This document shows positions 14,228 through 31,552 of a stretch of DNA of 64,000 nt, in pieces. The DNA is from Thermoanaerobaculia bacterium. GTDB taxonomy: Bacteria > Acidobacteriota > Thermoanaerobaculia > UBA5066. The position numbers and the translations under genes are program-made. The stretch is from the NCBI GenBank assembly GCA_963719225.1, contig CAVRAY010000001.1, forward strand, positions 224,001-288,000, read 5' to 3'. Positions within the stretch are counted from its first letter, which is position 1, and the number at the start of each line of letters is the position of its first letter. Under the pieces are notes generated by a model. That model had not been told where the DNA came from. It did not search any database and saw only the letters and a program-made list of their open reading frames with translations.

Positions 14228-14910
14228 TTCGAGAAGCGCAACGCGAGGAGCAGCGGCAGGCCCAGGTCCGCGGCGTACCGGTCGAGCTTCTTCGCACGCT
14301 CGTAGAAGGGCCGCACCTCCACGCCCACGCCAAGCGAGCCCGCCGCGTCGAAGGTGAGCCCCGCCTCCCGCGCGGCGGCTTCGTGGGCGTCCGCGTCGTG
14401 CACGACGTGCTCGACGACGTGCGCGGCTCCGGAAGCGTCGCGAAAGGCGCGCGCGTGCCCGCGACGGATGGCGTCCGGGTGGAAGTCCGTCAGGACGGCA
14501 TATCCGCCCTTGCGAAGGACGCGCGCGAGCTCGCGGTACAGCGGCGCGATGTTCAGGAGGTGCCCGACCGCGAGCCGGCACCACACCACGTCGAAGCGCT
14601 CGGCGGCGAAAGGCAGGGCCCTGAGGTCGCCGCCGGCGGTCGTGCGCGGCCGCGCGGGATCCCGGCGTCCCGCCGCGAGCATCTCGAAGACCAGGTCCAC
14701 CCCGCAGGCGCTCTTCGGAGTCTGCCCCTTCGGGAAGACGAGCCGGCGCGCCGTGCCGCAGGCCGCGTCGAGAAGGCTCTTCCCCTGAATGTCGTGCGAG
14801 AAGAACCGGACGGCGAGCGAGTCCATCGTCGTCAGGGGGTTTTCCACGTCGTACGTCGCCGCCCACAGCCGATACGCGGACGCCGTCCCGAGCGGAGGCT
14901 CGGCGCTCAC
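14224..14910 (-). CDS. Class I SAM-dependent methyltransferase (BioC-like)
   Basis: AYRLWAATYD, LLDAACGTAR, GVDL, GDLRALPF, FDVV, LARVLRKGG; GTG start overlaps rSAM stop. Confidence 0.85.
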   Translation of the reverse strand: MSAEPPLGTASAYRLWAATYDVENPLTTMDSLAVRFFSHDIQGKSLLDAACGTARRLVFPKGQTPKSACGVDLVFEMLAAGRRDPARPRTTAGGDLRALPFAAERFDVVWCRLAVGHLLNIAPLYRELARVLRKGGYAVLTDFHPDAIRRGHARAFRDASGAAHVVEHVVHDADAHEAAAREAGLTFDAAGSLGVGVEVRPFYERAKKLDRYAADLGLPLLLALRFSK

Positions 14911-16274
14911 GCGGGCGGCCTCAGGTGTCCATAGGCCTGTGAATCCGCAGGCACGAGCCCTCCCTTGAGCCGCCGCGCGAAGTCTTCCACACGATCCTTG
15001 AGAGGACGTGACAGCCACGGCACGCGCGGGTCCTCGTGCGTCATCCAGCCGACCCACTCGGGCGTCGTCCATTCCTCGAGGGTCGCGGGCGTGGTCGAGA
15101 GCGGGTCGACGTTTCCATAGGTCGCGCGGCGTTGGGGAGTCGGCGTGTAGAAATACGTGATGAGCTTCATGTCCGGATTCACGGCTGCCAGCTTCTCGAC
15201 GAACGCGAGAGTGGTCTCGACGTCCCGTCCGGGCTCGTCGGGATCGCCGAACATGAACGAGAACTCGGGAACGATGCCGAAGCGGCGGGACTTCTCCGCG
15301 AGGGCGAGCGTCTGGACGGTCGTGAGGTTCTTCGACATCTTCCTGAGAGTCTCGTCGGAGCCGGACTCGGCGCCGAAGTAGGCCATTGTGAGGCCAGAAC
15401 TCCGGAGAGCTTCCCACGTCCGGTCGGAGAATCGCAGCATCACGTCGATCCGGGCCTCGCACCACCACTTCAGCCCGAGCGGCGTCATCCTCTCGGCGAG
15501 CTCCAGGGCGCGGGACTCCTTGAGAAAGAAATTGTTGTCGTAGAAATGCACGGCGTCCATGCCGTGGCGCTTCACGAGGTACGCGAGGTTCTCCTCGATG
15601 CGCGCGGGCGACTCGAATTTCTGAAGGCTTCCGAGCGCCGCGATGACGCCGCAGAAGTTGCAGGTGTACGGGCAGCCGATCGAGGCCTGGTAAACCCCGT
15701 TTCGTTTCCCGAAAGCAGTCGGCTGGAGGTAGTCGTCGACGTCGATCCGGGTCCACGGCAGGGCCGGGAACGCGTCCGGGCCTTCCCAGGCGCGCTCCGG
15801 GTTGAGCCGCGCCTCGCCTCTCTCCTTCCAGCCGAGGCCCTGGACGGCGGCGGGGTCGAGACGTCCCGCCAGGACATCGAGCAGCTCGACGAGCGTGCGC
15901 TCGCCCTGGCCGCGCACGAGGAAGTCGACGTAAGACGCGCGCAGCACGGGGGCGGGGTAGAGACTCGGGAAATAGCCGCCCCAGACGATCGGGAGCATCG
16001 GGAAGCGCTCCTTGAGCCGTCGCGCGAGCGGCGCGGCCGAGACGAGCTGCGGCCCCGGCATGACGGTCATCGCGACGAGCGACACGGGATCGTCCGTGAG
16101 CGCGCGCATCCCGACGCAGGTCGCGACCGCCGCCTCGAGGTCGGAGTCCGGCGGGTTGCCGTCGAGGATCTCCCACGAGACGCCGGAAGGCAGAGCGGCG
16201 CCGAGCGTGAGGAGAGAGAGCGGGAAGCGCCGGTTTTTCGGGCGCGTGGCGCGGGGGTTGAGGAGGAGGATCAC
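14907..16274 (-). CDS. B12-binding domain radical SAM protein
   Basis: N-terminal cobalamin-binding domain (FPLSLL, VWGGYFPSL, VRGQGE); ASIGCPYTCNFC (CxxxCxxC); GAESGS. Confidence 0.9.
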   Translation of the reverse strand: MILLLNPRATRPKNRRFPLSLLTLGAALPSGVSWEILDGNPPDSDLEAAVATCVGMRALTDDPVSLVAMTVMPGPQLVSAAPLARRLKERFPMLPIVWGGYFPSLYPAPVLRASYVDFLVRGQGERTLVELLDVLAGRLDPAAVQGLGWKERGEARLNPERAWEGPDAFPALPWTRIDVDDYLQPTAFGKRNGVYQASIGCPYTCNFCGVIAALGSLQKFESPARIEENLAYLVKRHGMDAVHFYDNNFFLKESRALELAERMTPLGLKWWCEARIDVMLRFSDRTWEALRSSGLTMAYFGAESGSDETLRKMSKNLTTVQTLALAEKSRRFGIVPEFSFMFGDPDEPGRDVETTLAFVEKLAAVNPDMKLITYFYTPTPQRRATYGNVDPLSTTPATLEEWTTPEWVGWMTHEDPRVPWLSRPLKDRVEDFARRLKGGLVPADSQAYGHLRPPA

Positions 16275-16281
16275 GCGCGCC

Positions 16282-17091
16282 TCACGCTCTCCGCGCCACC
16301 CACAGGTCGAAGCGCGAGGGCTCCCGCCTTCCGAGGAGACGGGCCCTGAATCCCCGGGTTTCGTAGGCGAGCGGATAGCGGACGCGGCTCTTCTCGAACG
16401 ACAGCCCTGCGGGCGCGGCGGCGCGAACGAGGATTTCCGGCGTGAGGTATTCGACCGGCTGAAGCGCGAGAAGATCCGCCGCGAGGTCGCGAAAGATCCG
16501 CTCCGTGTCGCGCTTCTTCTCCTCGGCCATGGCCTCCCCCGACGCGGACCGCGCGTAGAAAGGAGAATCGAGTATAGCCACGCGTCCGCCCGGGACGGAG
16601 GCGCGCGCGGCCTCCCCCAGAACGCTTCCGAGATCCTCGGCGAGGTGCAGAGATGCGTCGAAGACCACGAGGTCGAAGACCGCGTCGGGGAAGGGAAGCG
16701 CGTCGAAGGACCCGGAGACGCGGCCGAACATGCGCGGCAGATGCCGCCGGAACGCCGCGCCCGCGGCGAGACCATCGACGTCGTCGATCCGCAGGTCGAC
16801 GGCGACGCACCGGTGCCCGTCGCGGCCGAGGCGCGCGCACAGCCAGCCGTTTCCCGCGCCGAGGTCGAGAACCGCGAGCGCGCGGCCGCGCTCCTTCGCG
16901 AGCGGCGCGACGACGCGGCTCCTCAAGGCCTCGAACGTGCGGGCACGAACCGCCCACTGGTCGGCGAGGGGGCCCGCGGTCACGTACGGCAACGCGAGGA
17001 GCTCGGCTTCTCCCCCCGCGCCACGGCCTTCCGTGCGCCTCAGTTGCGCGTAGGCGCGGGCCCACCGTCGCCGGGAAGATTCGGCGTTCAT
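16282..17091 (-). CDS. Class I SAM-dependent methyltransferase
   Basis: VLDLGAGNGWL, AVDL, FDALPFPDAVFDLVVF, PGG. Confidence 0.88.
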   Translation of the reverse strand: MNAESSRRRWARAYAQLRRTEGRGAGGEAELLALPYVTAGPLADQWAVRARTFEALRSRVVAPLAKERGRALAVLDLGAGNGWLCARLGRDGHRCVAVDLRIDDVDGLAAGAAFRRHLPRMFGRVSGSFDALPFPDAVFDLVVFDASLHLAEDLGSVLGEAARASVPGGRVAILDSPFYARSASGEAMAEEKKRDTERIFRDLAADLLALQPVEYLTPEILVRAAAPAGLSFEKSRVRYPLAYETRGFRARLLGRREPSRFDLWVARRA

Positions 17092-17936
17092 GCGGGAACC
17101 GCCGTCCTTTCGAAGTCGCAAAGCACGTGGTCGCCGAGCAGCGCCAGCGGCCGCGCCGCCAGGCGGTCGAGGCGCTCGAGCGCGCCGAGGAGGCGCGGGA
17201 AGCGCGACGCGGCGGGCTCTGCCGAGCTCGGCGGCACGAAGATCCCGATGCCGAGCGTCCTCCGGAGGCGGAACCACGGCGCGAAGGAGGAGGCGAGCGT
17301 CCGCGGCGAGGGATAGGTCACGGTGAACGTTTCGCCTCCCACGCGCGCCGGCGCGGGGGAACCTACAAACCTCCGGAACGCCGCGCGCGCCCTGCCCCGC
17401 GCCAGGAGGACGAGGACCTCGCCGGGGCAGCTCGGGCCGAAGAGGACGAGAAGGGCGCGCCGTCCCGTGGGAAGGAGGCGCGCAAGGCCGCGGGCGACGG
17501 AACCATGGTCCGCCACGCAGTTCAAAGACGCGAAGTTCGAGAACGCGCCGTCGAAGATCGTGCCGCTGCGCGCAGCCGCCCACGTATCGAGCTCCTCGAG
17601 CGAAACGCGCTCCGACGTGACGCGTTCGCCGAGAGCCGCAGCGCGGGCTTTCTCCGCGGCGCGTCCCACCATCGCGGGCGCTCCATCCGTGACGAGAACG
17701 CGGCGTCCACGCTCGGCGAGGAAGATCGCGTCCTCGCCGGTGCCGCCTCCGAGCTCGATCAGCGTGGCGCCCACCGGAAAGGCCTCGAGAAGCGCGCCCC
17801 GCACCGCGCGACGCTGGGCCGCGACGCTCCTCCACCCCGAGAACCGCTCGTCGAACGAGGGAGCGAGGGCGTCGAAGGCGCGGACCGCCGGGGAGAGATG
17901 ATGCATCGGCTCTGAAGTGACGTCCCCGAAGCTCAC
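17088..17936 (-). CDS. Class I SAM-dependent methyltransferase
   Basis: AFDALAPSFD, LIELGGGTGEDA, FDGAFSNFASLNCV; start GTG 17936 or ATG 17906. Confidence 0.88.
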   Translation of the reverse strand: MSFGDVTSEPMHHLSPAVRAFDALAPSFDERFSGWRSVAAQRRAVRGALLEAFPVGATLIELGGGTGEDAIFLAERGRRVLVTDGAPAMVGRAAEKARAAALGERVTSERVSLEELDTWAAARSGTIFDGAFSNFASLNCVADHGSVARGLARLLPTGRRALLVLFGPSCPGEVLVLLARGRARAAFRRFVGSPAPARVGGETFTVTYPSPRTLASSFAPWFRLRRTLGIGIFVPPSSAEPAASRFPRLLGALERLDRLAARPLALLGDHVLCDFERTAVPA

Positions 17937-17940
17937 GCGT

Positions 17941-19422
17941 TCATACGCGCATGAGATCGATGGGAGTCGGATCGGCGGGAGGGCGGGGCGGGGCGGCGCG
18001 GAATCCGGCTTCGATCGCGTCGAGCATGCTCCACCGCTCGTCCAGGGCCTTTGCGCCGTTCTGCCCCTCGTCACCCGGCGACGTGTAGGCGGTGACCTCC
18101 GCGTGCAGAAGGTCGCGAACGTGCCGGTAGAAAGACTCCTCGTACGTTCCCTTGAACATCATCGCGAGGTCGTCGCTGTCGCGCCAGTTCGAGCGCGGGC
18201 CGAGCTGTCCCTTGACCGTCTCGTAGAATTTCGTGCCGGGAAGCGGATACGACACCGAGACGCCGATGTCGTCCGGCCGCTCCTCGAGGACGAGCGCGCG
18301 CGTCGCGACGAGGTCCTCCCACGTCTCGCCCGGATAGCCGAGCTGGAGGAACCACGCGGGGCGGATTCCGTGGCTGCGGAGGAGGCGCGTCGCCGTGCGC
18401 ACCTGTTGGATACGCGTGCCCTTTTCCATCGCGTCGAGGATGTTCTGCGCGCCCGACTCGACGCCCATCCACACTTCCTCGGCCCCCGCGCGCGCGAGGG
18501 CGGCGACGGCCGAGGGCGTCATGAGGTCCACGCGCGACTGCATCATGAACGGCACGCGGACGCCTTCCTGCGCGAGGGCTTCGGCATACGACTCGATCCA
18601 CCGCGGCGTCAGGCCGAAGATATCGTCCGCGAACCAGAGGTGGTCGGGATGGACGTTCTCGGCGAGCAGGCGCACTTCACGGGCGACGTTCGCGGGGCTG
18701 CGCTGGGCGTAGCGGGTGCCGTAGAGCGGCTTCGCGCACCAGTTGCAGTGAAAGGGGCACCCGCGCGTCGTCACGACGTTCCACGAAAGGCGGCCATGGG
18801 CGTTTTTCCAGGCCGTGCGGTACGCGTCGGCGTCCGCGAGGTCCCAGGCGGGAAAGGGAAGCGCGTCGAGGTTCTCGACGAAGGGCCGGATTCGGGTTCT
18901 CTTCGGCGCGGTGTCGGCCGAGCTCCCGGGGAGCGCGAGTCCGGGGATGCCCTCGAGCACCGCCCTGGGATCGGCCGTCCACGCCTCCGCGAGCTCGGCG
19001 AACGTGACCTCCGGCTCGCCGAGGATCACGGCATCCGCTCCGGCGGCGAGGTAGGACGTCGCATGGTCCGTCGCGTCCGACCCGTTCACGGCGACCAGGC
19101 GCGAGCGCGCGTGGGCCGCGGCCACCATCGCCAGGGCCGCCTCGCGGTTTCGCGTCGTGCACATTTTCGTCAGGAAGTTGAAGTTGTCCTCGAGGATCCC
19201 GACGATCGAGGCGTCCGAAGTATCGAGGGCGCGCACGAACTCGGCCTCGCTTCCAGCGAGCATCGCGTCGAAGAGCTCGACGTCGAATCCGCGCTCGCGC
19301 AGAACCGAAGCGACGAGGAGAGTCGCGAGGGGCGGATACGGTTTCATCTTCCGCCACTGCTTCGCGTCGTTTGCGAGGTAGTAGGAGTGCGCGAGGAGAA
19401 CCTTCGGCCGGGCTCCGCACAT
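17941..19422 (-). CDS. B12-binding domain radical SAM protein
   Basis: HSYYL..D.KQW..MKPYPPLATL, ILGEPE, TTRGCPFHCNWC (CxxxCxxC), FADDIF, GVESG, YPLPGT. Confidence 0.92.
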   Translation of the reverse strand: MCGARPKVLLAHSYYLANDAKQWRKMKPYPPLATLLVASVLRERGFDVELFDAMLAGSEAEFVRALDTSDASIVGILEDNFNFLTKMCTTRNREAALAMVAAAHARSRLVAVNGSDATDHATSYLAAGADAVILGEPEVTFAELAEAWTADPRAVLEGIPGLALPGSSADTAPKRTRIRPFVENLDALPFPAWDLADADAYRTAWKNAHGRLSWNVVTTRGCPFHCNWCAKPLYGTRYAQRSPANVAREVRLLAENVHPDHLWFADDIFGLTPRWIESYAEALAQEGVRVPFMMQSRVDLMTPSAVAALARAGAEEVWMGVESGAQNILDAMEKGTRIQQVRTATRLLRSHGIRPAWFLQLGYPGETWEDLVATRALVLEERPDDIGVSVSYPLPGTKFYETVKGQLGPRSNWRDSDDLAMMFKGTYEESFYRHVRDLLHAEVTAYTSPGDEGQNGAKALDERWSMLDAIEAGFRAAPPRPPADPTPIDLMRV

Positions 19423-19480
19423 CGCCCGCGAGCCTAATTCAGTCGTTTTGAAAAAAGTGTGACGTGGATTGCCAATTCGG

Positions 19481-20503
19481 TTACGTGACGAGACTTTTCA
19501 ACAAAGCGACGGCGCCCTCGAGGTCGGAGGCGCCGTCCAGCCGCATCCCGCCCGCGCCGGCCCAGGCGCGCGCGACGGCGCCGGATCCACCGTCGACGCT
19601 TTCCTGGGGAATCTCGCCTTTCGTGAACTCCTCGACGAACTCCGGACCCGCGAGCTGGACGAGACGCGCTGGTCCGGGAACGCGCGGTCCGAGGAGCAGC
19701 GTCGAAACGCGTCGGGCCGCGCGCGCTTCGGGACGCGAGGCCGCGAAGAGATCGATGCGGCGCTTCACCTCGCCGCCCGAGAACCCGGCCTCGGTGCCCG
19801 ACTGGAGGCCCAGAAGAGCCGCGCTGTCCTCGCGCAGCGTCAGCTCGCGGACCGAGGAGGCGAGCTCGTCCGGATCGGCGCGCGAGACGAGCACGCTCTC
19901 GTCTCCGAGCACGCCGAGCCCGGCGGCGTGCGCGGCGGCCACGAGCGTGGACTTTCCGGCGTCCGAGGCCCCGCGCACCACGACGGCGCCCTTCGGACCC
20001 GTGACGGCGCCCGCGTGCAGCGCGCGCCAGCCGCGGCGCGCGAGCAGGATCGCGGCGGGGGCCTCGAGGAGCGTGCGGGCGAGGAAAGAACGAAGAGAAG
20101 AAGAGGAAGATTTCTTAGAAAGGGGAAGATAAGAAAGAAGAGAAGCCGCGATGCGCGCGTCGACGCGCGCTCGCTCGAGATTGATCGTGACTTCCAGGGC
20201 GCCGGGGACCGCGCAGCGAAATTCCGACGCCTCGTGCACCCACTGCAGTCTTTCTTCGAGTGAAAGAATGGGGTCGGCGTCGCGGCGCGGCGAGCTGGGA
20301 GCCGCCACACCGCCCTTTTTCGCGCCTTCCAAGAAATCTTCGTCTTCGTCCCGCGTAACCTCGATCGCGATCGCCGCGCGCGCATGGCCCGTGGGCGCCG
20401 GCGCCCAGAGCTTCTCCGCCAGCTCGAAGAGGAGCGGCTCTTTCGACGTGAGCGCCACGACATCTCCGGGCGGCCCAAAGAGCCGTGTCGTTCCGTCCGC
20501 CAT
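19481..20503 (-). CDS. HPr kinase-related P-loop kinase
   Basis: LHAGAV....GAVVVRGASDAGKSTL followed by VLGDE, the HprK-like signature; start uncertain. Confidence 0.8.
   Translation of the reverse strand: MADGTTRLFGPPGDVVALTSKEPLLFELAEKLWAPAPTGHARAAIAIEVTRDEDEDFLEGAKKGGVAAPSSPRRDADPILSLEERLQWVHEASEFRCAVPGALEVTINLERARVDARIAASLLSYLPLSKKSSSSSLRSFLARTLLEAPAAILLARRGWRALHAGAVTGPKGAVVVRGASDAGKSTLVAAAHAAGLGVLGDESVLVSRADPDELASSVRELTLREDSAALLGLQSGTEAGFSGGEVKRRIDLFAASRPEARAARRVSTLLLGPRVPGPARLVQLAGPEFVEEFTKGEIPQESVDGGSGAVARAWAGAGGMRLDGASDLEGAVALLKSLVT
20106..20126. repeat. Dispersed AT-rich motif GAAGATTTCTTAGAAAGGGGA
   Basis: Identical 21-mer at 25053-25073; core also at 51182, 58042 and inverted at 25099, 58116. 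Confidence 0.75.
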
Positions 20504-20730
20504 GTGCCGCAGCTTGCCACGGAGAGCCCGACGACTCCGGAAGTCCGGCTCAGGGCGGCCATGGGCCGTTCTGCCGGGAAGGCGTAACCTTTCACGATTC
20601 CGTGCGTCATACCGGGATGCTCTCGGCCCCCGGCTGCGTGCGGGCCTTTTCGAGCGCCGTCCTGGCCCTGGAGTTGCTCGGGAGAGAAGGAACCGTGTGT
20701 CCTCGGTCAATTCGGCGTGGAGGTTCTCCG

Positions 20731-23700
20731 ATGAGTCAGCTTCGAGATCGTCGTTCCGGCGCTCGCGGGTGGAACCGCGGCCTCTCCCTGGTGCCGCTTC
20801 TCGTGCTCGCTCTCCTGGCCGGCGGTGCACGTGCCGGGGAGATCCGCGGGCGGCTTCTCGTCAACGATCGCGCGGACAGGCCCGCGGGCGGCCTCACGGT
20901 CAGCGCCGTTCCCTGGGAGACGCCGGGCGAAGAAGCGCGCCGCGCCATGAAAGGAGGCGACCCCCCGAAGCCGATCGCGTCGACCGTCACCGGAGCCGAC
21001 GGCTCCTTCGTCCTGGCCGTTCCCAGCGATCCCGCGGCTGAAAAGACGTTTCGCGTGAGAGTCGAGGGCCCGGGCGTCGTGCCCGTTCTCTTCGAGGACG
21101 TCTACGACGCGTCCGAGACCGGAGATCTCGGCGAGCACACGCTGCCGCACGGCGAGAAGCTCACGGGCATCGCGGTGGACACGTCCGGGAACCCGCTCGC
21201 GGGAGCGGAAGTCTCCCTCGAGGCGGGGGTTGCGGGCGGCGACGACCTCGCCTTCCGGGTCGTGACGCGGAAGGTCGTGACGAAAGAGGACGGGAGGTTC
21301 CAGTTCGAAGAAGCGAGCGCGCTGGGCAACCAGATCACGATCGAGAAGGCGGGCCTCGCGCCCGCGCTCCAGACCGGCCTCAAATCAGGCGCGATTCCGA
21401 GGCCCATCGCGGTCGTCGCGGGCGACCCGGTCACCGGCGTCGTCCTCGGCGCCGGCCGGAAACCCGTGGGAGGCGCCCTCGTGCGGCTGGAGAGCGTCAA
21501 GGCGATGACGCGCTGGGTCGAGACGGATCCCGAGGGACGCTTCACGATCCCGCACGCGCCCGACGGCCGCGGCGCGATCGTCGTGGACGCCGGCGACGGC
21601 GGCTGGGGACGCAAGCCCGACGTCAAGCTCCCTCTCGGCGAGGGCCGATCGCTCGTAATCACCCTCGCTCTGCCGGCCTCGCTCGACGGCAAGGTCGTCG
21701 ACGACAAGTCGGGGCGCATCGTGCCGCGCGCGAAGGTCCTGGCGAAGGCGAACGGCTTCGCGCGCCTCGTGCGCACGGGCCCGGACGGGACGTACCACCT
21801 GAAGGGCATCCCGCCGCAGACCTATCGCCTCACCGTCGACGAGCCACGATACGTGCCGTGGGCGAGGCCGGATCTCGCGCTCGCGCCCGGCGAGGCGAAG
21901 CGCCTCGACATCGCCGTGACGCTCGGAGCCTCGCTCGCCGGGAGGGTCGTGGACGAGAACGGCGCCCCCGTGGCGAGCGCGCGCGGAACCCTCATGCGCG
22001 GAGGCGAGAACGCCCTCCAGGGCATCCGCCGGATGATGCGCGCCGGAGGAGAGGTCACCGCCTTCCGCACGCGCTCCGACGGGACGTTCCGGGCCGCGCG
22101 CCTCGCCCCCGGCGACAACCAGCGCCTCTTCGTGAGCCATGCGGACTTCGAGCGCGCGACGCTCGCCGGACTGTCCCTGCCCTCCGGCGGCACGAAGGGC
22201 GACGTGGCCGTCGTGATGCGCCGGGGCGCCACGATCTCGGGCATCGTGAAGGACACGAGCGACCAGCCGGTCGCGGACGTCGAGGTGCAGGTCGATCCAT
22301 CCGTGAGCTTTCGCGCTGGAGCGGGCGGCATGGTCGCGAACTTCGCGCGCCTCGGCGGCCCGAGCACGCGCCCCAGGACGAAGACAACCGCCGACGGCAG
22401 GTTCCGGATCAAGGGCATGGCCGTGGGCGAGTACGCGCTCCAGATCAGCAAGCCGGGGTTCGCGAGCGAGCGCGTCGACCCCGTGAAGGTGACGGAGAAA
22501 GGCGCCGATCCCGTCGCGGTGACCCTCGGGCCGGGAGCGAGCATTTCGGGGATCGTGCGCCGGAAGAGCGGGGAAGGGGCCGAGGGCTTCTTCGTGCGCG
22601 TCGGCGCCGGCGGCCGCGGGGCGGCCGGTGGAGGCGGTCCGCTCGCCGGAACCGGCACGCCGCTCCCGACCGGCGCGGACGGAACGTTCGTCCTCGACGG
22701 CCTGAAACCGGGTCACGTTTACGACCTCTCCGTCTTCGGCGGGGCAGGCATCGGTCCGCAGAAGCGCGGCGTCGTGGCGCCGGCCTCGAACGTCGACATC
22801 CTGGTTTCCGGCACCGGGCGGATTTCAGGCACCGCGCTCGACGCGCGCTCAGGCCAGCCCCTCAAGAGCTTCTCGGTTTCCTTCGAGCCCGACCGCGGCG
22901 GCGGCACGGTCATCCGTCTCGTTGCCCGCGGCGCGGGTGCCCGTACCGGCATCGGCCAGAAGCGCAATTTCAACACCGACGATGGCGCGTTCACGCTCGA
23001 GGACGTGCCCGCTGGAACCTGGACGGTCGTCGTCGAGGCGAAGGGCTATCTCGAGGCGCGCGTCGCGAACCTCGTGGTCGAGGAGAGTGGCTCCAAGGAC
23101 GGCGTCGAGATTCGCGCGACCCCCGGAGTCGTCCTCAAGGGACGGGTCTCGGACGCGCGCACCGGCCGGCCCGTCGCGAACGCGAGCATCACGCACGAGC
23201 CGGCCGGGGGCGGCGGGCCGGGCGGCTTCGGAGGCCGTATGACCGTGCTCGCGGGGCTCGACGGCGGCGACGACATCACGAGCGACGCGGAAGGCAACTT
23301 CGAGATCGAGGGAATCTCCGTCGGGCGCCTCAAGGTCACCGCGAAGAGCCCGGACTACACGGACGGCAGCGAGGTGGCGGACGTCAAGGAGACCGGCGGC
23401 ACCGTCGAGATCAAGCTCACGACGGGCGGATCGGCGGGCGGCGTCGTCGTGGCCGGCAGCCAGCCGCTCGCGAACGCCCAGGTCTCCCTCGCGGTCGCGG
23501 GCGACGCGGGCTTCGGCCGCATCCTCGGGGGCGGGCAGACCACCACGACGGACGCGACGGGCCGCTTCCGGTTCGACCACCTCGGGGCCGGCCGCTACAG
23601 CGTCTCGGCGGGGACGAGCGGAAAGTCGAGCAACCTCTCGGAGTTCGTCCTGCAGGCGGGCGACTCGAAGAACGACCTCGTGCTGTCGCTCACCTCGGGC

Positions 23701-25014
23701 TCGACGATCCAGGGCACGGTGTCGGGACTTCCGGACGGATGGAGAACCGGCGCGACGGTGATGGCCAGCGGCGTCGAGTCGTTTTTCGAGACGACGAAGG
23801 TCGCCGCCGACGGCACCTTCCAGATCACGGGCGTGCCCGCGGGACCGGTCACGCTCCGCGCGCAGGCGGGCGACGGCCTCGGCACGTCGAGGAGCGCCAC
23901 GAAGCAGGTGACGGCGAGCGACGACGTGCCCGTTCTCCAGGCGGAGATCGTGTTCGACGTCGGCTTCACGCTGACGGGGCGCGTCATGCGAGCGGGGCAG
24001 CCCGCCGCGAACGCGATGGTCGTCGCGAACCTCCAGGGCGGCGGCGGCCGTCAGGCGACGACGCGCGCCGACGAGGGCGGCACCTACACGCTGCAGGGCC
24101 TGCAGGAGGGCTCGTACGTCGTCACGGCGATGGCGGATCCGCTCTCGGGCGGCGGCTCGCAGGTGAGGCAGACGATCTCGCTCACGAACGACCAGAACCT
24201 CGACCTGACGTTCCCGACGGCGAAGGTGGCGGGCACCGTGACGGACGCCGACACGAAGCAGCCGCTCGCCGACGCCACGGTCTCGATCGCCTCGACCTCG
24301 GCCGCGGGCAGCGTCCCGATGCAGAGGATGGCCACGACGGACAGCAACGGGCGCTTTCAGTTCATGGACGTCGTGCCGCAGGCCTACACGCTCAACGCGC
24401 AGAAGACCGACTACGAGTTCGACAAGCGCAGCCTCACGGCCGCCGACGACGGCAGCACCGAGAATCTCGCGATCGAGCTCGTGCACGGGCAGGGCATCGG
24501 CATCCAGGCGCGGGATGCGCTCTACGGCGTCCCGATGCGCAGCGTCTCGGTGCGCGTCCTCGACGGGAACAGGTCGGCCGTCTTCATGGGTACGATCTCT
24601 CTCGACACGAGCGGCGTCGGCGAGGTCCCGTCGCTCAAGCCGGGGACCTATTCGCTCTTCGTGAACGCGAGCGGTTACGCGACGGTCGTCCTCGCGAGCG
24701 TCTCGGCGCCGTCGCAGCAGCCCGTGCCGGTTTCCCTGACGCCCGGCGGCTCCGCCGACATCTCGGTCGGACCGAAGTCGTTCGTGAACGGCATCCTGCG
24801 CGGCACGCTCAAGACGGCGGCGGGCATCCCGTACCCCTACACGCTGTTCGCGGCGGACGGACGAATCGCGATCACCGCCGACGCGAGCGGCCACACGGGC
24901 TTTCGGCGCCTCACGAACCTGGCTCCGGGCAGCTACGTCCTCGCGCTCGACAACGGCGGCGGCACGACCTTCAACGTCGCCGAAGGCAGCATCACGCCGG
25001 TGCCGCTGCCATAA
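20731..25014 (+). CDS. Large secreted protein of carboxypeptidase-regulatory-like (transthyretin-like beta-sandwich) repeats
   Basis: RBS GGAGG; signal peptide ..ALLAGGARA; >10 repeats of type I.G.V.D..G.PV..A.V...T..DG.F...G...G.Y.L. Confidence 0.85.
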   Translation: MSQLRDRRSGARGWNRGLSLVPLLVLALLAGGARAGEIRGRLLVNDRADRPAGGLTVSAVPWETPGEEARRAMKGGDPPKPIASTVTGADGSFVLAVPSDPAAEKTFRVRVEGPGVVPVLFEDVYDASETGDLGEHTLPHGEKLTGIAVDTSGNPLAGAEVSLEAGVAGGDDLAFRVVTRKVVTKEDGRFQFEEASALGNQITIEKAGLAPALQTGLKSGAIPRPIAVVAGDPVTGVVLGAGRKPVGGALVRLESVKAMTRWVETDPEGRFTIPHAPDGRGAIVVDAGDGGWGRKPDVKLPLGEGRSLVITLALPASLDGKVVDDKSGRIVPRAKVLAKANGFARLVRTGPDGTYHLKGIPPQTYRLTVDEPRYVPWARPDLALAPGEAKRLDIAVTLGASLAGRVVDENGAPVASARGTLMRGGENALQGIRRMMRAGGEVTAFRTRSDGTFRAARLAPGDNQRLFVSHADFERATLAGLSLPSGGTKGDVAVVMRRGATISGIVKDTSDQPVADVEVQVDPSVSFRAGAGGMVANFARLGGPSTRPRTKTTADGRFRIKGMAVGEYALQISKPGFASERVDPVKVTEKGADPVAVTLGPGASISGIVRRKSGEGAEGFFVRVGAGGRGAAGGGGPLAGTGTPLPTGADGTFVLDGLKPGHVYDLSVFGGAGIGPQKRGVVAPASNVDILVSGTGRISGTALDARSGQPLKSFSVSFEPDRGGGTVIRLVARGAGARTGIGQKRNFNTDDGAFTLEDVPAGTWTVVVEAKGYLEARVANLVVEESGSKDGVEIRATPGVVLKGRVSDARTGRPVANASITHEPAGGGGPGGFGGRMTVLAGLDGGDDITSDAEGNFEIEGISVGRLKVTAKSPDYTDGSEVADVKETGGTVEIKLTTGGSAGGVVVAGSQPLANAQVSLAVAGDAGFGRILGGGQTTTTDATGRFRFDHLGAGRYSVSAGTSGKSSNLSEFVLQAGDSKNDLVLSLTSGSTIQGTVSGLPDGWRTGATVMASGVESFFETTKVAADGTFQITGVPAGPVTLRAQAGDGLGTSRSATKQVTASDDVPVLQAEIVFDVGFTLTGRVMRAGQPAANAMVVANLQGGGGRQATTRADEGGTYTLQGLQEGSYVVTAMADPLSGGGSQVRQTISLTNDQNLDLTFPTAKVAGTVTDADTKQPLADATVSIASTSAAGSVPMQRMATTDSNGRFQFMDVVPQAYTLNAQKTDYEFDKRSLTAADDGSTENLAIELVHGQGIGIQARDALYGVPMRSVSVRVLDGNRSAVFMGTISLDTSGVGEVPSLKPGTYSLFVNASGYATVVLASVSAPSQQPVPVSLTPGGSADISVGPKSFVNGILRGTLKTAAGIPYPYTLFAADGRIAITADASGHTGFRRLTNLAPGSYVLALDNGGGTTFNVAEGSITPVPLP

Positions 25015-25052
25015 GGAGACGAGAGAAAGAAAGATTCTTGGAAAGAGAATTA

Positions 25053-25108
25053 GAAGATTTCTTAGAAAGGGGATTTGGCCGATTCTTCCTTATTACCCTT
25101 CTAAGAAA
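25053..25108. repeat. Intergenic inverted pair of the TTTCTTAGAA motif
   Basis: TTTCTTAGAA 25058-25067 and TTCTAAGAAA 25099-25108. Confidence 0.75.
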
Positions 25109-25152
25109 GCGCCGAGACCCGCTGCTTCGAAGTCAGCTATTAAGATCAGCGC

Positions 25153-27150
25153 ATGATGAAGCACGGGAGCAAGACTCTTTTCCTTTCTCTTTTTCTTCTT
25201 GGAATTGCCGCGTTGGCGGCGCGCGCCGAGACGCCCGAGCAGGCGCGAGGGAAGAAGCAGGCCGCCGCGCTGTGGCGCGCGGCCGACGGGGACGCGGCGG
25301 CCTTCGAGGCGTTCGCGAAGGCGAACACCGCGCCCGATGCCGCGACGCGCGACGCCATGTTCATGCGTCTTTCGGCCGCGCTCGTCTCGCTAGAGGGGCA
25401 CATGGACGAGGCGACCCGCGATCTGAGAATGCACGTGGACCTCGACCGGGGACCGATACAGCCGTTCGACGAGGCGCTCGCGGCGTATTACCCCGGCGCT
25501 CACCTCACCGACGACCTTTTCGAGAACAAGCTCGCCTTCACGACTCTCCTCAACTTCCCCGTGTACACGCTCGACGAGAAGCTCCGCCTCGGCCCGAAGT
25601 GGACGCGCCGCCAGTGGGCGGAGGCGCGTCTCGCCGACCGGTTCGCGCGCCGTGTTCCGGCCAGCGTGAACCTCGCGATCGCGAAGGCTTATTCGGACTC
25701 GCAGCAGTACATCGCCTCGTACAACATCTGGATGCACCATCTCGTGGACGACAAGGGCGCCCGCCTCTTCCCCGCGAAGATGCGGCTTCTCTCGCACTGG
25801 AACCTGCGCGACGAGCTCAAGTCCGATTACGCCGACCGCGAGCAGGGGCCCGCGAAGCAGCGCGCGATCCGCAAGGTCATGGAGCGCATCGTCGATCAGA
25901 CGATCCCCTTGGCCGTCCTCGACAACCCAGGGGTGGACTGGAATCCGTTCACCAACGAGGTCAGGAAAGCGGCCGTCAAGGACTCGGACCTGCCGGAGAA
26001 GCCGGCCCCTTCCGGTCCCGAGCCCGACTCGCGTTACGCGGTCCTCCTCGCCGATTTTCGCGCCGTGAGGCAGGCCGATCCCTACTCGCCGACGGCGCCC
26101 ACGTTCATCGCGCGGAAGTTCGAGGAAGGCCGCCAGATCCCCGAAGCGCGCGTTCGGAAGATGCTCGAGGACGTCCTTTCCTCGCCGCTCGTGCCGAAAG
26201 TCGCGGCGCTCATCGAGAAGCGCCTCGGGCGGAAGCTCTCGCCCGTCGACGTCTGGTATTCCGGCTTCCGGCCGCAGCCGGAAAAATCCGGTGCTGAGCT
26301 CGACGCCGTCGTCCGGGCGAAATACCCGACGCCCGAGGCGTACGCAAAGGACATCCCGAACCTTCTCGCCAAGCTCGGCTTCTCGAAGGAGAAGGCCGAA
26401 TTCGTCGCGTCTCGCATGGAGGTGCATCCGGCGCGCGGTTCCGGCCACGCCTCAGGCGCAGAGCTGAAGGGCTACAAGTCGTACCTGAGGACGCGCGTCG
26501 AGAAGGACGGGATGAACTACAAGGGCTACAACATCGCCGTCCACGAGATGGGTCACAACGTGGAGCAGACGTTCTCTCTCTACGAGATCGACGAGCCCCT
26601 GCTGAAAGGCGTGCCGAACACGGCTTTCACCGAAGCGCTCGCATTCGTCTTCCAGGGGCACGACCTCGAGCTCCTCGGTCTCGCGAAGCCGTCGGAGAAG
26701 GCTCTCGCGGAAAAGACGCTCGACGCGTTCTGGGGCACGTACGAGATCGCCGGCGTCGGCCTCGTCGACATGGGCGTCTGGCATTTCATGTACGAGCACC
26801 CCGACGCGACGCCCGCCCAGCTGAAGGCGGCGACGCTCGCGATCGCGCGCGACGTCTGGAACCGTTTCTTCGCCCCAGTTCTCGGCGAGAAGGACGTCAC
26901 GCTCCTCGCGATCTACTCGCACATGATCGACGCGTTCCTGTATCTGCCCGACTACTCGATCGGTCACATGATCGCGTTCCAGGTGGAGCGGCAGATGGAG
27001 AAGGCGGGAGCGATCGGCCCCGAGTTCGAGCGCATGGCGAAGCTGGGAAACATCGCGCCGGATCTCTGGATGACCCAGGCCGCGGGCGCGCCCGTCGGCC
27101 CCGAGGCGCTTCTCGCCGAGACGGAAAAAGCCCTTTCGACGATCCGTTGA
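25153..27150 (+). CDS. Secreted zinc metallopeptidase-like protein (gluzincin, M2/M3-like)
   Basis: Signal peptide; HEMGH followed by NTAFTEALA (third Glu ligand) and YSH...Y.PDY. Confidence 0.7.
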   Translation: MMKHGSKTLFLSLFLLGIAALAARAETPEQARGKKQAAALWRAADGDAAAFEAFAKANTAPDAATRDAMFMRLSAALVSLEGHMDEATRDLRMHVDLDRGPIQPFDEALAAYYPGAHLTDDLFENKLAFTTLLNFPVYTLDEKLRLGPKWTRRQWAEARLADRFARRVPASVNLAIAKAYSDSQQYIASYNIWMHHLVDDKGARLFPAKMRLLSHWNLRDELKSDYADREQGPAKQRAIRKVMERIVDQTIPLAVLDNPGVDWNPFTNEVRKAAVKDSDLPEKPAPSGPEPDSRYAVLLADFRAVRQADPYSPTAPTFIARKFEEGRQIPEARVRKMLEDVLSSPLVPKVAALIEKRLGRKLSPVDVWYSGFRPQPEKSGAELDAVVRAKYPTPEAYAKDIPNLLAKLGFSKEKAEFVASRMEVHPARGSGHASGAELKGYKSYLRTRVEKDGMNYKGYNIAVHEMGHNVEQTFSLYEIDEPLLKGVPNTAFTEALAFVFQGHDLELLGLAKPSEKALAEKTLDAFWGTYEIAGVGLVDMGVWHFMYEHPDATPAQLKAATLAIARDVWNRFFAPVLGEKDVTLLAIYSHMIDAFLYLPDYSIGHMIAFQVERQMEKAGAIGPEFERMAKLGNIAPDLWMTQAAGAPVGPEALLAETEKALSTIR

Positions 27151-27186
27151 CGCAACTTCAGAGCCTCGGCGCCGTATAGTTCCCCC

Positions 27187-28521
27187 ATGAGAATGACTTC
27201 CTCGACGGCGATCATCACGGCGCTCCTCGCGGCTTCTGCTTCCTCGTTCGCGTCCACGACGAAAGAAGCTGCAAAAGAAGTCCTGCCCTTCATCGCGGAC
27301 GACTACCCGAAGGCCCTCGCGCTCGCGCGCGCCGAGAAGAAGCCGATCTTCCTGGAGACCTGGGCGCCCTGGTGACACTCCTGCCGTGCCATGAGGGCCT
27401 TCGTCTTCACGGACAAGGCTCTCGGGCGGCAGGCCGGACGGTTCGTCTGGCTCTCCATCAACACCGAAAAGCGCGAGAACGCGGCCGTCCTCGCGAAATA
27501 CCCGATCCAGGCCTCGCCCACGCTTTTCGTGCTCGATCCCGTGGCCGAGAAGATCGTCCTCAAGTACGTCGGTGCCGCGACGGTGCCGCAGCTCCAGCGC
27601 ATCCTCGACGATGGCGCACGCGCCGCGGGCCACGGCCGAAAGCCCGACGAGTGGCTCGCGAAGGCGGACGCTTTCTATTCGGCCGGCCAGAACAAGGAAG
27701 CGGCCGAGGCCTATCGCGCGGCCCTGAAGGGCATGGCGCCTTCCTCGCCGTCGTACCCGCGCACCGCCGAGTCGCTCCTCTTCGTGCTTTCCGCGAGCCG
27801 CCAGCACGAGGCGTGCGTCGAGGTCGCGCGCGAAGCGTTCCCGCACCTGAGAACGTCGCCGTCCGCCGCAAACGTCGCGGCTTCGGGCCTCGACTGCGCG
27901 CTCACGCTCGACAAGAAGCTGCCCGCGAGGTCCGCGCTCGTCTCCGAATTCACGGCCGACGCGGAACAGGTCCTGAGCGGGCGGCGCGCAGGCCTCGCGG
28001 TCGATGACGTCTCGTCGCTGTATCTGACGCTCGCCGGCGCGCGCGGGGACGCGGGCGACGAGAGCGGAAAGAGGAAGACGCTCGAGGAATTGGCGTCGTA
28101 TCTGGAAGGCGAGGCCGCGAAGGCGAAGACCGCCGAAGGCCGCGCCGCGTTCGACGCGCACCGCATCACGGCATACCTCGAGCTGGGCCAGCCCCAGCGG
28201 GGAATCGCGATGCTCGAGGCCTCCGAGCGCGACTTTCCCGACGACTACAACCCGCCCGCCCGCCTCGCCCTCGCCTATCGGGCCATGAAGAAGTACGACG
28301 AGGCCCTCGCGGCTTCCGACCGCGCGCTCCAGCGCTCCTATGGTCCGCGGAAGCTCGTCATTCTGCAGGCGCGCGCCCGCATCTACGCGGACAAGGGAGA
28401 TCCCCAGGCGGCGAGAAGGACCCTCGAAGAGGCCCTCGCGTGGGCCGAGGCGCTCCCGAAGGAACAGGTGTCCGAGCGGCAGGTCGCCGCGCTCAAGAAA
28501 CAGCTCGAAGCGCCCAAGTAG
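27187..28521 (+). CDS. Exported thioredoxin-like/TPR protein with in-frame TGA (probable selenoprotein, UxxC)
   Basis: TGG GCG CCC TGG TGA CAC TCC TGC = WAPW-U-HSC; ORFs 27187-27375 and 27391-28521 are in one frame; cis-Pro loop YPIQASPT; TPR-like C-terminal half. Confidence 0.85.
27380..27433 (+). promoter_or_regulatory. SECIS-like stem-loop just downstream of the UGA
   Basis: CCTGCCG/CGGCAGG, GAGGGCCTT/AAGGCTCTC and GTC/GAC stems with apical loop TTCACG. Confidence 0.65.
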
Positions 28522-28547
28522 AATCGGTCCGGCCTGACGGAGGCTCC

Positions 28548-29879
28548 ATGCGGTGGATCCCTCGCGCGATCGTTCCGGCGTTGGTGCTCTTCGCGCCTGT
28601 GGCATTCGCGCAGGATTCGCTGCTCGGGCAGAACGCGCTCGCGACCGAGTCCGGCCGCTTCCGCCTCAAGGCGGAAGTGAAAATGAACGCGCGGACGTCG
28701 ACCGCGATCGAGTTCCCGGTCGCGAACACGGGGACGCCGTTTCCTGTCGTCCTCGAGACCGTCTCCCCGCACACGTCCGCGGAGATCTCGAACATCGCTC
28801 TCACGGCCGAGGGCGACCTCACGCCCGACATCCTCGCCAGGATCGTCATCCACTTCCTCGACCTCTACAACCGCAATCCCACGTCCAGCTCCGACCGCAT
28901 CTTTCTGCGCGAGGCCTTCGTGCGTTTCGGGAAGAAGTGGGACGCGTTGAAGGAGATGCCCGGCACCAGCGTCTATCTCGAGCTCGGCAAGGAGCCGCGT
29001 TTCGCCAAGCAGATCACCCGGCGTCTCGAGAGCTACGGCCTGTGGGGCACGGCCGTGAACCGCTTCGAGGAGACGGGGGCCGAAGCGGGCGGCTCGTTCG
29101 GGCCCCACCTCTACTGGCGCGCGAGCGCCACCGGCGGCACGCCTCTCTACTTCCGCGACACGAACGCGCTGGCGGGAGACAACGGAACGCCCGAGCGCAC
29201 CGTCGGCTCCACGGTTCCGGTGGTCTTCGGCTCGGGAATCCCGATCCTCTACGACACGATGGCGACGGACGTGAGCTTTTCGGGGCGCTTTCAGCTCGGC
29301 GGCGGCGTGGGGCTGCGCTTCAACTGGGGCGAGAGCCGGCGGGACGGAGTGGACCTTCTCGGCTGGTACTTCCGGCGCGACCTCGCCGAGTACGTCCCGC
29401 TGCGGGGCACCTTCTACTCGGGTGATCTCGAGGTCCTGGAGGGTTTCAACAACCCCCTGCCCTTTCAGGGAACGGAGAAGTACGAGTACGGCGTCAACCT
29501 CGAGGCGCGCTTCGGGCCCGTGCACCTCTTCGGGCAGGGCGTCAAGCAGTCCATCGCCGGCCTCGAGCGCGAAGGTTACGAGGTCGAAGCCTCCGTGCGA
29601 ATCGCGCTCCCGGGCCTCTTCGCTTCCGGCGACCAGGCCGTCGTCAACTGGATCGAGCCTGCCGTGCGCGTCTCGTACATCGACAACCTCTTCGACCTGC
29701 CGGCCGGCTTCGTGGCGCCGTCCTTCGGATGGGACTGGCGCAAGTACGATTACGGCTTCCGCCTGGGCATCTTGCGCGGCCTCGATCTGACCGTGGAATA
29801 TTCCCGCCACGAGTCCACGACGCGCAGAGGGGTCCTCCACCCGGACGAAGGCCTCCTGACGCTCCGCGCCGCTTTCTGA
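28548..29879 (+). CDS. Putative outer-membrane beta-barrel protein
   Basis: Signal peptide ..APVAFA; alternating aromatic beta strands; C-terminal LTLRAAF (terminal Phe). Confidence 0.7.
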   Translation: MRWIPRAIVPALVLFAPVAFAQDSLLGQNALATESGRFRLKAEVKMNARTSTAIEFPVANTGTPFPVVLETVSPHTSAEISNIALTAEGDLTPDILARIVIHFLDLYNRNPTSSSDRIFLREAFVRFGKKWDALKEMPGTSVYLELGKEPRFAKQITRRLESYGLWGTAVNRFEETGAEAGGSFGPHLYWRASATGGTPLYFRDTNALAGDNGTPERTVGSTVPVVFGSGIPILYDTMATDVSFSGRFQLGGGVGLRFNWGESRRDGVDLLGWYFRRDLAEYVPLRGTFYSGDLEVLEGFNNPLPFQGTEKYEYGVNLEARFGPVHLFGQGVKQSIAGLEREGYEVEASVRIALPGLFASGDQAVVNWIEPAVRVSYIDNLFDLPAGFVAPSFGWDWRKYDYGFRLGILRGLDLTVEYSRHESTTRRGVLHPDEGLLTLRAAF

Positions 29880-29974
29880 CTCGGCTCCGAGCGCTCGCGG
29901 GGCTGGAATGCCACCGCGGGCGCATAATCGTGCAACCAGATCGCGCAAGATTCCGCGTCTTTCAGGAGTAGAGG

Positions 29975-30781
29975 ATGAAGTATTCCCTTCGTCTCCTTTC
30001 GCTCGCGGCCGCCGGCGTCCTCGCGGCGGGACTCGCCGGTTCCGCGCGCGCCGAATCCGGCCGGCGCGCGGCCGCCCTGGTCGGAAACAGCTACGTTTTC
30101 CCGTCCGTCGCGAACACGCAGGGGCTTTTCAACGCGTTCTTCAAGACGAAAGTCACGCTCTACAACCCCAACACGTTCGACGTCGTCGTCCAGGCGCAGC
30201 TCACGACGACGGCCGGCTCCCCGCTCCCGCAGAACATCCCGCTCGCGGCGGGAGGGTTCCGGCGCTGGGACAACTTCCTTCAGGACGTCTTCGGCTTCAC
30301 CGGCGGCGGCGGCCTCATCTTCACGGAGGCGTCGTCGCACGTCTTCATCGCGGTCGTCGAGGTCTACGTCGACGGCCCGAACGGCCGTTTCACGACCCCC
30401 GTCACGGGACTTCTCCCCGACGACGCGATTCTCCCGTCCTCTCTGGCGACGGGCGCGATCTTCGTGGCGCCGGGCATCCAGAACAACGCCGGCAACCGGG
30501 CGAACTTCGGCTGCCTGAGCCTCGCGCCCATCGCCTCGACGGTGCGCATCGACTTCCACGCGTTCACGAACGACGAGCACACGGTCACGACCACGACGAT
30601 CAACCTGCAGTCCTTCGCGTGGCAGCAGCAGGCCGTTCCGATCTCGGGCGACGACATCATCGCGGTCTTCGGCCTGACCACGGACGACCCCTCTCTCGTC
30701 GCGTACTGCTATGCCGTCAACGTCAACAACGCCTCGAACGACGGCAACAGCATCGTCGCCCGGCGGTCCCCGCCGAAGTAG
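29975..30781 (+). CDS. Secreted protein consisting of one copy of the ~230-aa repeated domain
   Basis: Signal peptide; YVFPSVANTQGLFNAFFKTKVTLYNP ... RANFG ... YAVNVNNASNDG resemble the repeats in 828-3671 and 3756-6989. Confidence 0.75.
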   Translation: MKYSLRLLSLAAAGVLAAGLAGSARAESGRRAAALVGNSYVFPSVANTQGLFNAFFKTKVTLYNPNTFDVVVQAQLTTTAGSPLPQNIPLAAGGFRRWDNFLQDVFGFTGGGGLIFTEASSHVFIAVVEVYVDGPNGRFTTPVTGLLPDDAILPSSLATGAIFVAPGIQNNAGNRANFGCLSLAPIASTVRIDFHAFTNDEHTVTTTTINLQSFAWQQQAVPISGDDIIAVFGLTTDDPSLVAYCYAVNVNNASNDGNSIVARRSPPK

Positions 30782-30856
30782 CGTCTCGAAGCCGGCTTCT
30801 GGCGCCGATCTTGCGACATTCGAGCTGCGAGGTTCGAACTCGCAGGACGGTGACTC

Positions 30857-31552
30857 ATGCTGGCGAAAAAAATTACAAACGAACGGCGCGTTTACAAAGA
30901 CGTGATGAAAGTCCCCTCGGGTGAAATCGAGCTGCCGGCGGAGATTTCAGTCCCCGAGCTCGCCGACGGGATCGTGGTTTTCTGTCATGGCAACCGGAAC
31001 CGGCGGCACGGCTCCGCGAACCGGGCCGTAGCCGAGAGCCTGGTGCAGGAAGGAACCGCCGCGGCGGTGTGCAATCTGCTCACGCCCGCGGAGGAGAAGC
31101 TCGACGAGCACATCGCGGGCCCGCGATTCGACATCAAGTCCCTCGCGGGGCGCCTCGCGGATCTCACCGACTCCCTCCTGAAGGACGCGAGAACGCGCCA
31201 CCTTCAGATCGCCTACTTCGGTGCGTCGACGGCCGCCGCCGCGGCTCTCGTGGCCGCCGCGGCACGGCCGCTCGTCGTGAGGGCGGTCGTGTCGTTCGGC
31301 GGGCTGCCTCATCTCGCCGGGAAGGCCCTGCCGGAGGTCGAGGCTCCGACGCTTCTCCTCGTCGGCGAGCACGACTGGCAGATCATGGATGGGAATCGGG
31401 AGGCGCTCGCCAGGCTCCGCGCACCGAAGTCGCTTCAGCTCGTTCCCGGCGGGACGCACCTGTTCGCGGCGCCGAGCGCCCTCGCGGAGGCCTCGCGTCT
31501 CGCGTGTGACTGGTTCCGGCACTACCTGAGCCTCGTGAGCGTGACGGCCTGA
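30857..31552 (+). CDS. Dienelactone-hydrolase-like alpha/beta hydrolase
   Basis: VVFCHG, YFGASTAAAAAL, AVVSFGG, PTLLLVGEHD, VPGGTHLF. Confidence 0.8.
   Translation: MLAKKITNERRVYKDVMKVPSGEIELPAEISVPELADGIVVFCHGNRNRRHGSANRAVAESLVQEGTAAAVCNLLTPAEEKLDEHIAGPRFDIKSLAGRLADLTDSLLKDARTRHLQIAYFGASTAAAAALVAAAARPLVVRAVVSFGGLPHLAGKALPEVEAPTLLLVGEHDWQIMDGNREALARLRAPKSLQLVPGGTHLFAAPSALAEASRLACDWFRHYLSLVSVTA

Follow-up and report, generated by a model that had tools for sequence, protein, structure and literature searches.

How could SelB reach a selenocysteine insertion signal lying well outside the usual distance from the UGA codon? In the sections of the sources cited here, the bacterial SECIS is described as a hairpin with a loop of 3-9 nt, a G at loop position 1 or 2, placed 16-37 nt from the UGA (PMC13188914; PMC10778597), and G and U are the conserved loop features (PMC8704476). 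The SECIS is bound by domain 4 of SelB, and its lower part is unwound as the ribosome reaches the UGA (PMC7026636, section cited). The description of BSepDB gives a canonical SECIS for 87.4% of entries (PMC13326102, section cited). On the protein side, a comparable fusion is CnoX, a cytoplasmic protein that joins a thioredoxin domain to a TPR holdase (PMC8129009, section cited). The locus analyzed here lies in a 64,000-nt stretch of a Thermoanaerobaculia genome (GCA_963719225.1, contig CAVRAY010000001.1, positions 224,001 to 288,000; hereafter the window). Sequence comparison indicates that it is a real, very likely selenoprotein-encoding gene, and that its recoding signal appears to break the spacing rule.

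The gene and its UGA codon

Translation of 27187-28521 gives a single frame from the ATG at 27187 to the TAG at 28519-28521, with one interruption (Table 1). As the original prediction had it, the 62-aa and 376-aa open reading frames belong to one frame, broken only by a TGA at the first Cys of a WxxW-C-x-x-C motif. It had also foreseen that automatic annotation would miss the full protein, and this is the case: the plain list of open reading frames holds the 376-aa piece only, starting at ATG 27391 (Met69), and public databases store a 376-379-aa fragment under the usual name 'tetratricopeptide repeat protein', assigned where named to Thermoanaerobaculia or Acidobacteriota.

Table 1. Coordinates of the gene, its parts, its upstream neighbour and other selenoprotein candidates of the genome (C1 and C2, contigs; otherwise window positions)
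Feature	Position	Strand	Remarks
Sec-thioredoxin/TPR gene	27187..28521	+	encodes a predicted selenoprotein of 444 aa with signal peptide, thioredoxin fold and TPR-like helical repeats
Predicted Sec-pathway signal peptide	27187..27252	+	~residues 1-22; no Cys in what we take to be a lipobox, no twin arginine; read from sequence
Thioredoxin-fold domain	27277..27624	+	~residues 31-146; PF13899 43.8 bits, PF00085 31.6, PF13098 30.8, all above cut-off
In-frame TGA	27373-27375	+	predicted selenocysteine 63, first position of U-H-S-C, context WAPW-U-HSC
Hairpin H1	27380..27433	+	long stem, G-less loop; likely spacer/loop-out or pausing element
Hairpin H2, GCCGGACGGTTCGTCTGGC	27433..27451	+	7-8 bp stem, loop GUU 27441-27443, 65 nt after UGA; likely SECIS
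TPR-like helical repeat domain	27640..28518	+	~residues 152-444; Pfam TPR models, structure searches
Upstream M3-like metallopeptidase (HEMGH), predicted exported	25153..27150	+	665 aa; E 0.094 only
SelD	C1:3642345
Formate dehydrogenase alpha	C1:736134
AhpC/TSA-type UxxC	C1:2923112	-
Prx TxxU	C1:116472	+
UxxC protein, presumably GrdB-like	C2:437698	-

Orthologs were gathered in three steps. A match at E < 1e-80 is present in 54 of 61 related genomes, and the 50 loci examined comprise 45 with TGA and 5 with Cys. Together with 80 loci kept from 136 in a genome collection these make 130, from which 24 duplicates and 3 loci missed by the search pattern were removed to leave 103 distinct loci (89 TGA, 12 TGC, 2 TGT). 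The held-out loci are the 3 pattern-missed ones, all Cys, and 9 from a phylum sample with a match in 14 of 251 genomes, 7 of them new TGA loci and 2 duplicates. The Cys codons expected at the TGA column of homologs are found there: among 113 distinct orthologous loci, which through kinship are not independent, 96 carry TGA and 17 TGC or TGT. The UGA aligns with the Cys of homologs and the frame is kept on both sides, the pattern by which selenoprotein genes are recognized. Records with the titles Eisenbacteria, Krumholzibacteriia and Gemmatimonadota likewise include TGA forms. Representatives at 50% identity number 451 at E <= 1e-30, and the best 150 of these 451 include 47 that start just past the Sec column, for which TGA is presumed, 87 full-length sequences with WxxWCxxC, and 16 that are neither. 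A FastTree tree of 101 leaves, made from residues beyond the hairpins after the short L070 and L090 were dropped, requires 7 Fitch changes of codon state and places the Cys forms in 6 separate groups; its backbone is weakly supported and midpoint-rooted, and it counts Sec/Cys changes without giving their direction. Apparent frameshifts in L070, L036 and L037 (a premature stop following 123 residues; a scrambled signal region) are possibly assembly errors.

In an unrelated public run a contig is identical to 27281-27455 (0 differences), and this identity, with the TGA in orthologs, rules out an assembly error at 27373. Contigs of relatives span the TGA in two RNA runs, in small shares, and such contigs do not prove transcription. 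The genome, 4.75 Mb and 97% complete, encodes the selenocysteine machinery that the prediction had asked for: selA, selB and selD score above curated cut-offs and there is a tRNA-Sec with anticodon UCA. They lie in four separate places and form no single operon (selA C1:575k, selB C2:235k, tRNA-Sec C1:2787k, selD C1:3642k). SelD itself contains an in-frame TGA. A selA gene is found in 60 of the 61 related genomes, a tally that includes, like that of the orthologs, the unpublished genome G037; the remaining claims do not appear to depend on this genome.

Could the TGA instead be a true stop, in a pseudogene or between two genes with a restart at Met69, or a Cys or Trp codon in a variant code? 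Met69 hardly varies and is the start chosen by gene callers, and one TGA-bearing genome (G022, 96% complete, 480 contigs) has no selA match, but with a split the thioredoxin fold would be broken at its active site, the column holds only TGA or Cys codons in 113/113 loci and never TAA or TAG, and orthologs down to ~45% identity are open on both sides of it. TGA ends ordinary genes here (for example at 27148-27150), and the genome has a normal tRNA-Sec, SelA and SelD; all this leaves such readings only a very slight probability. Neither a lack of Sec machinery, nor TGC or TGT in place of the TGA, nor a private nonsense mutation, each of which the original prediction had named as telling against it, was found. 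UGA 63 very likely encodes selenocysteine, which would be inserted at this codon.

A coding-potential screen and family searches of this genome yielded six further selenoprotein candidates, five of them in Table 1. The genes for SelD, formate dehydrogenase, the GrdB-like protein and the AhpC-type protein have GUC or AGUU loops 16-19 nt from the UGA. Prx and a small thioredoxin-like gene have signal loops at 21-27 nt, and this block is kept in 20/20 Prx and 13/14 small-thioredoxin orthologous loci (one missed the pattern), the Prx signal standing at 21-22 nt in 20/20 loci of the genus. The small gene (C1:208248-208622, minus strand; L162/L185) is predicted to encode an exported protein of 125 aa with PG-U-P-V-C; each of its 15 matches in 41 genomes contains one TGA, and the canonical hairpin stands at 26 nt. 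Masking of the first 8 nt gives these six genes a probability of 0.75-1.0 for a canonical loop within 16-37 nt, versus 0.001 for the Sec-thioredoxin/TPR gene.

The recoding signal

The UGA is followed by two hairpins. The first, H1, had been put forward as a SECIS-like hairpin starting 4 nt after the UGA, and its stability, its apical loop and the selection on it stand up, but its role as the SECIS is not supported, the loop having no G-U. H1 folds at -35.1 kcal/mol (z = -5.95, 0/200 shuffles as good), and among 1500 Cys-codon positions sampled from the genome 1 equals this stability over the same span. Masking the first 8-11 nt leaves 27388-27427 (+13 to +52) able to fold. The mean z against synonymous recoding is -2.67 in TGA loci and +0.11 in Cys loci, from which it is evident that H1 is under selection in TGA loci only. 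Its register shifts among orthologs with no single consensus, and alifold did not recover the long stem. The loop, UUCACG/UCAC, lies 30-31 nt after the UGA and varies among orthologs (TTC/TAC, ACG/ACC); a canonical loop at 16-37 nt reaches a probability above 0.5 in 2/89 TGA loci. Two other candidate structures were rejected: for the TGA set alifold replaced the long H1 by a short and G-less hairpin from +17 to +34, which stems from conserved protein sequence and was not accepted as a SECIS, and a covarying pair at +6:+57, seen by eye, pairs in 32/89 loci only.

The second hairpin, H2, resembles a canonical bacterial SECIS in loop, stem and energy but not in position. The criteria applied were a loop of 3-9 nt with G[G/U], a stem of 4-16 bp, an energy of <= -7.5 kcal/mol and a UGA-loop spacing of 16-37 nt; H2 has the loop GUU, 7-9 bp and -11.8 kcal/mol, and a spacing of 65 nt. 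Its loop type, R-G-U-Y, is that of the genome's other selenoprotein signals. An H2-like hairpin at 60-70 nt is found at 0/1500 Cys-codon positions. H2 is intact in 96/96 TGA loci versus 2/17 Cys loci (L033 and L054), and among these in 7/7 held-out TGA loci and 0/3 held-out Cys loci; all 7 core pairs are kept in 89/89 TGA versus 2/14 Cys loci, with the loop RGUUY in 89/89 TGA loci. On the tree it has decayed in 4 of the 6 Cys groups and is intact in two single leaves beside TGA relatives.

Synonymous sites within H2 are frozen: Ala is GCC in 88/89 loci, Gly is GGA or GGG in 89/89 (no GGC, against a background of 58%) and Val is GTC in 89/89, compared with a median top-codon share of 0.61 and a maximum of 0.87 over 50 four-fold sites further on. 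The protein sequence follows the same division, AG[RQ]FVWL being present in 39/47 representatives that start past the Sec column versus 4/87 full-length Cys representatives, and to judge from these alignments it is the RNA signal that fixes these residues. Compensatory change is almost nil (only 2 A-U at +65:+69), and the support for H2 as a predicted structure is invariance together with one-sided changes compatible with G-U pairing. The alifold consensus of the TGA set recovers H2, and H1 and H2 side by side are the minimum-energy fold in 45/89 TGA loci with 8 nt masked. An Rfam scan of 26500-29000 returned 2 matches, both far below the gathering score and neither to a SECIS family, and a promoter and terminator scan of 24900-31000 returned 0 promoters and 4 minus-strand terminator-like sites, which is the chance level. 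The pattern of conservation makes it quite likely that H2 is the SelB site and the SECIS of this gene.

A reading in which H1, with its G-less loop, would be a non-canonical SECIS and H2 would be kept for another reason, such as a second SelB site or RNA stability, is improbable. H1 is selected in TGA loci only, its loop falls within the allowed range, and canonical signals are missing from 12.6% of catalogued bacterial selenoprotein genes (PMC13326102, section cited), but its loop sequence varies and lacks G-U, against an invariant H2 whose loop is of the kind seen in the other signals of the genome. With H2 as the SelB site, what could bridge 65 nt? The same SelB serves signals at 16-27 nt in this cell, so the difference must lie in the RNA. 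We propose that SelB would bind H2, 65 nt 3' of the UGA, and that H1 would loop out about 40 nt and place H2 next to the ribosome. About 12 nt would lie inside the ribosome, H1 would span +13 to +52 and H2 would begin at +58; with H1 folded in this way the H2 loop would stand at an effective 20-25 nt. There are no indels over +1 to +76, and H2 starts right at the end of H1 in all orthologs.

H1 might alternatively act as a pausing or stimulatory element, like a Sec redefinition element, with selenocysteine still inserted from H2. It is very stable, starts 4-12 nt past the UGA and varies in register among orthologs, and redefinition-type elements stimulate Sec insertion in SELENON (PMC8704476, section cited). 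This role would leave 65 nt still to be bridged, because this SelB also serves genes whose spacing is 16-27 nt, and it sits poorly with an H2 that begins exactly where H1 ends; we regard it as rather unlikely, if a shade less so than H1 as the SECIS. Shortening of the path by looping out is the action of H1 that we moderately favour, and the whole model, with selenocysteine at a conserved UGA, an exported thioredoxin-TPR protein, SelB at H2 and H1 looped out, seems probable from the comparative data.

The encoded protein and its neighbours

The predicted thioredoxin plus TPR architecture is borne out by Pfam models of both domains above cut-off, several TPR models among them (21 Pfam hits in all), and by an AlphaFold2 model from 36 sequences with C for U (pLDDT 89), in which residues 1-25 are disordered (below 50), 31-146 form a thioredoxin fold and 152-444 about 15 helices. 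Export is likely, as had been proposed: a simple hydropathy test finds a hydrophobic 9-mer before the thioredoxin domain in 97/103 orthologs, and of the 6 without one, 2 are fused to an exported protein encoded upstream. Pro111 (27517-27519), invariant in 36 sequences, occupies what we take to be the position of the thioredoxin cis-proline. Structural matches of the thioredoxin domain include 2lst (Z 14.8) and the DsbD C-terminal domain 1vrs (Z 13.9), and structure searches return TPR superhelices together with DsbD-like or disulfide-isomerase-like thioredoxins. Within the TPR domain, Cys210 is invariant and Cys237 nearly so, on neighbouring helices, and they could form a structural disulfide.

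By analogy with these relatives, an extracytoplasmic disulfide reductase or isomerase with a TPR groove holding its substrates has a slightly better than even chance of being the correct function, the direction of the enzyme included. After export, Sec63 would attack wrong or oxidized disulfides of substrates in the TPR groove, Cys66 would resolve the intermediate and DsbD would re-reduce the active site. The result would be a reductase or isomerase with chaperone-like binding, a CnoX-like working outside the cytoplasm. The same selenoprotein might instead be a disulfide-forming oxidase or, by what we assume to be an analogy with CcmG/CcmH-like thioredoxin-plus-TPR helpers, assist cytochrome c maturation, a reading that overlaps those of the recoding signal. 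In its favour, the first x of U-x-x-C is conserved as His (CH[TSAV]C in 83/87 Cys relatives), and DsbE, TlpA and ResA give NCBIfam scores that are weak and in each case far below cut-off. An oxidase is at odds with the presence of a DsbD-type gene and the lack of a DsbB match in this one 97% complete genome, where absence is not proven, and a maturation role with a scan of 7 recurrent neighbours, none of which belongs to a family of cytochrome c maturation; this other chemistry is possible and on balance unlikely.

Upstream of the gene lies a 665-aa protein without Pfam or NCBIfam match, the M3-like peptidase of Table 1. It adjoins the thioredoxin-TPR gene in 16/103 loci and is fused to it in frame in 2. 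The fusions (L074:2045-5305 and L084:2036-5311; also L026 and L033) have differing junctions and have lost the second signal peptide, and of the two peptidase-thioredoxin-TPR fusions one keeps TGA (Sec at about residue 697) and the other has Cys. An S9 peptidase stands directly upstream in 23/103 loci: in a second clade (L100-L149, 23 loci) the gene for an exported S9 prolyl-oligopeptidase precedes the Sec codon by 150-370 nt, and genes of the ArsC family and BFD-like ones are close by. The S9 and M3-like associations each belong to one clade and so count as two observations, not 39; when 80 loci were clustered by neighbourhood, none of the neighbours was shared by every clade. Downstream, the genes at 28548-29876 (+) and 29975-30781 (+) have signal-peptide-like starts and no Pfam or NCBIfam match. 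The former follows the thioredoxin-TPR gene in 12/16 loci of the closest clade, and its product ends in Phe, presumably like that of outer-membrane barrels. Elsewhere in the window, 14224-20830 (-) holds two radical-SAM-like open reading frames (CxxxCxxC), methyltransferase-like ones and a kinase-like P-loop one, all labelled by eye, and is possibly a peptide-modification cluster.

Implications

Taken together, it seems somewhat probable that bacterial SelB can use a SECIS at a distance of 65 nt through a co-selected looping hairpin, and that this two-part signal serves an uncatalogued, widespread exported Sec-thioredoxin/TPR chaperone-reductase. If this is true, the two-part signal frees the codons of the catalytic helix and dictates seven residues further on (AG[RQ]FVWL), and it would account for some of the bacterial selenoprotein genes, about one in eight, that have no canonical SECIS. 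The signal weighs more than the protein, since SECIS-based gene finding is built on the 16-37 nt rule, which also restricts the design of recombinant selenoproteins. The repeated exchanges of Sec and Cys pinpoint the nucleotides that would be under selection, and lead to a short, testable construct for long-range SelB action. The exported Sec-thioredoxin plus TPR architecture, missing from the 2026 catalogue, would be a modest addition to the many UxxC families.

Relation to known selenoproteins and signals

With a thioredoxin fold and a predicted UxxC, the protein is close to the UxxC Sec-thioredoxins. It shares with the catalogued UxxC families (Trx, PF00085; thiol:disulfide interchange protein, PF13098; thiol-disulfide isomerase-like, cd02966; Table 1 of PMC13188914) the fold, the predicted Sec as the first residue of UxxC and the existence of Cys homologs, and differs in a best domain of PF13899, a TPR-like domain of 290 aa and a signal peptide. 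There is no TPR entry among the 119 families in Table 1 of that 2026 catalogue, 'TPR' and 'tetratricopeptide' have 0 occurrences in its main text or in PMC13326102 and PMC12013277, and by the catalogue's own family criterion, in the portion of the source cited, none of its families has the same architecture. The families of Haft and Tolstoy (2025) were compared through the PMC13188914 table and NCBIfam only; no selenoprotein model of NCBIfam (June 2026) reaches its cut-off. BSepDB may hold members under generic thioredoxin (Trx) names. Literature titles and abstracts gave no thioredoxin-TPR selenoprotein and no bacterial SECIS so distant, one of the searches being weak and returning mostly unrelated results.

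Two NCBIfam models, NF041199 (Trx7/PDZ selenoprotein) and NF045694 (TsoB), likewise describe a Thioredoxin_7 or DsbD-like domain fused to another, and give weak cross-hits here of 18.7 of 300 bits and 30.5 of 805, respectively. Their motifs are CxxU and UxxxxU as against UxxC, and the present protein has neither a PDZ nor a rhodanese domain; membership of NF041199 in particular, for which a score above 300, CxxU and PDZ are expected, is contradicted by the score, the motif and the absence of PDZ among the 21 Pfam hits. CnoX/YbbN (3qou) has the thioredoxin-TPR fusion in common with it. CnoX, as described in the section of PMC8129009 cited, has ~285 aa, is cytoplasmic, works with GroEL and DnaK, and has SxxC in E. 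coli, whereas the protein described here has 444 aa, a predicted signal peptide and, by prediction, Sec. The whole chain aligns to 3qou with a Foldseek E of 9.4e-6, a TM of 0.20 and 12-15% identity, and 3qou is not among the 39 PDB sequence hits. A cytoplasmic protein without signal peptide is also not what the hydrophobic N-termini suggest (97/103, simple hydropathy), and membership of CnoX/YbbN is not supported; by analogy, a CnoX-like working is the most that could be proposed.

The signal has two counterparts. Like the E. coli fdhF-type SECIS, H2 is part of the coding sequence on the 3' side of the UGA and matches that SECIS in loop size, G-U, stem and energy, but its loop is 65 nt from the UGA, not 16-37, and stands behind a second conserved hairpin. 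The arrangement of a stem-loop just 3' of the UGA plus a more distant SECIS is reminiscent of the Sec redefinition element of SELENON (PMC8704476, section cited); in eukaryotes the SECIS is placed in the 3' UTR and acts via SECISBP2, whereas here both hairpins abut within the open reading frame.
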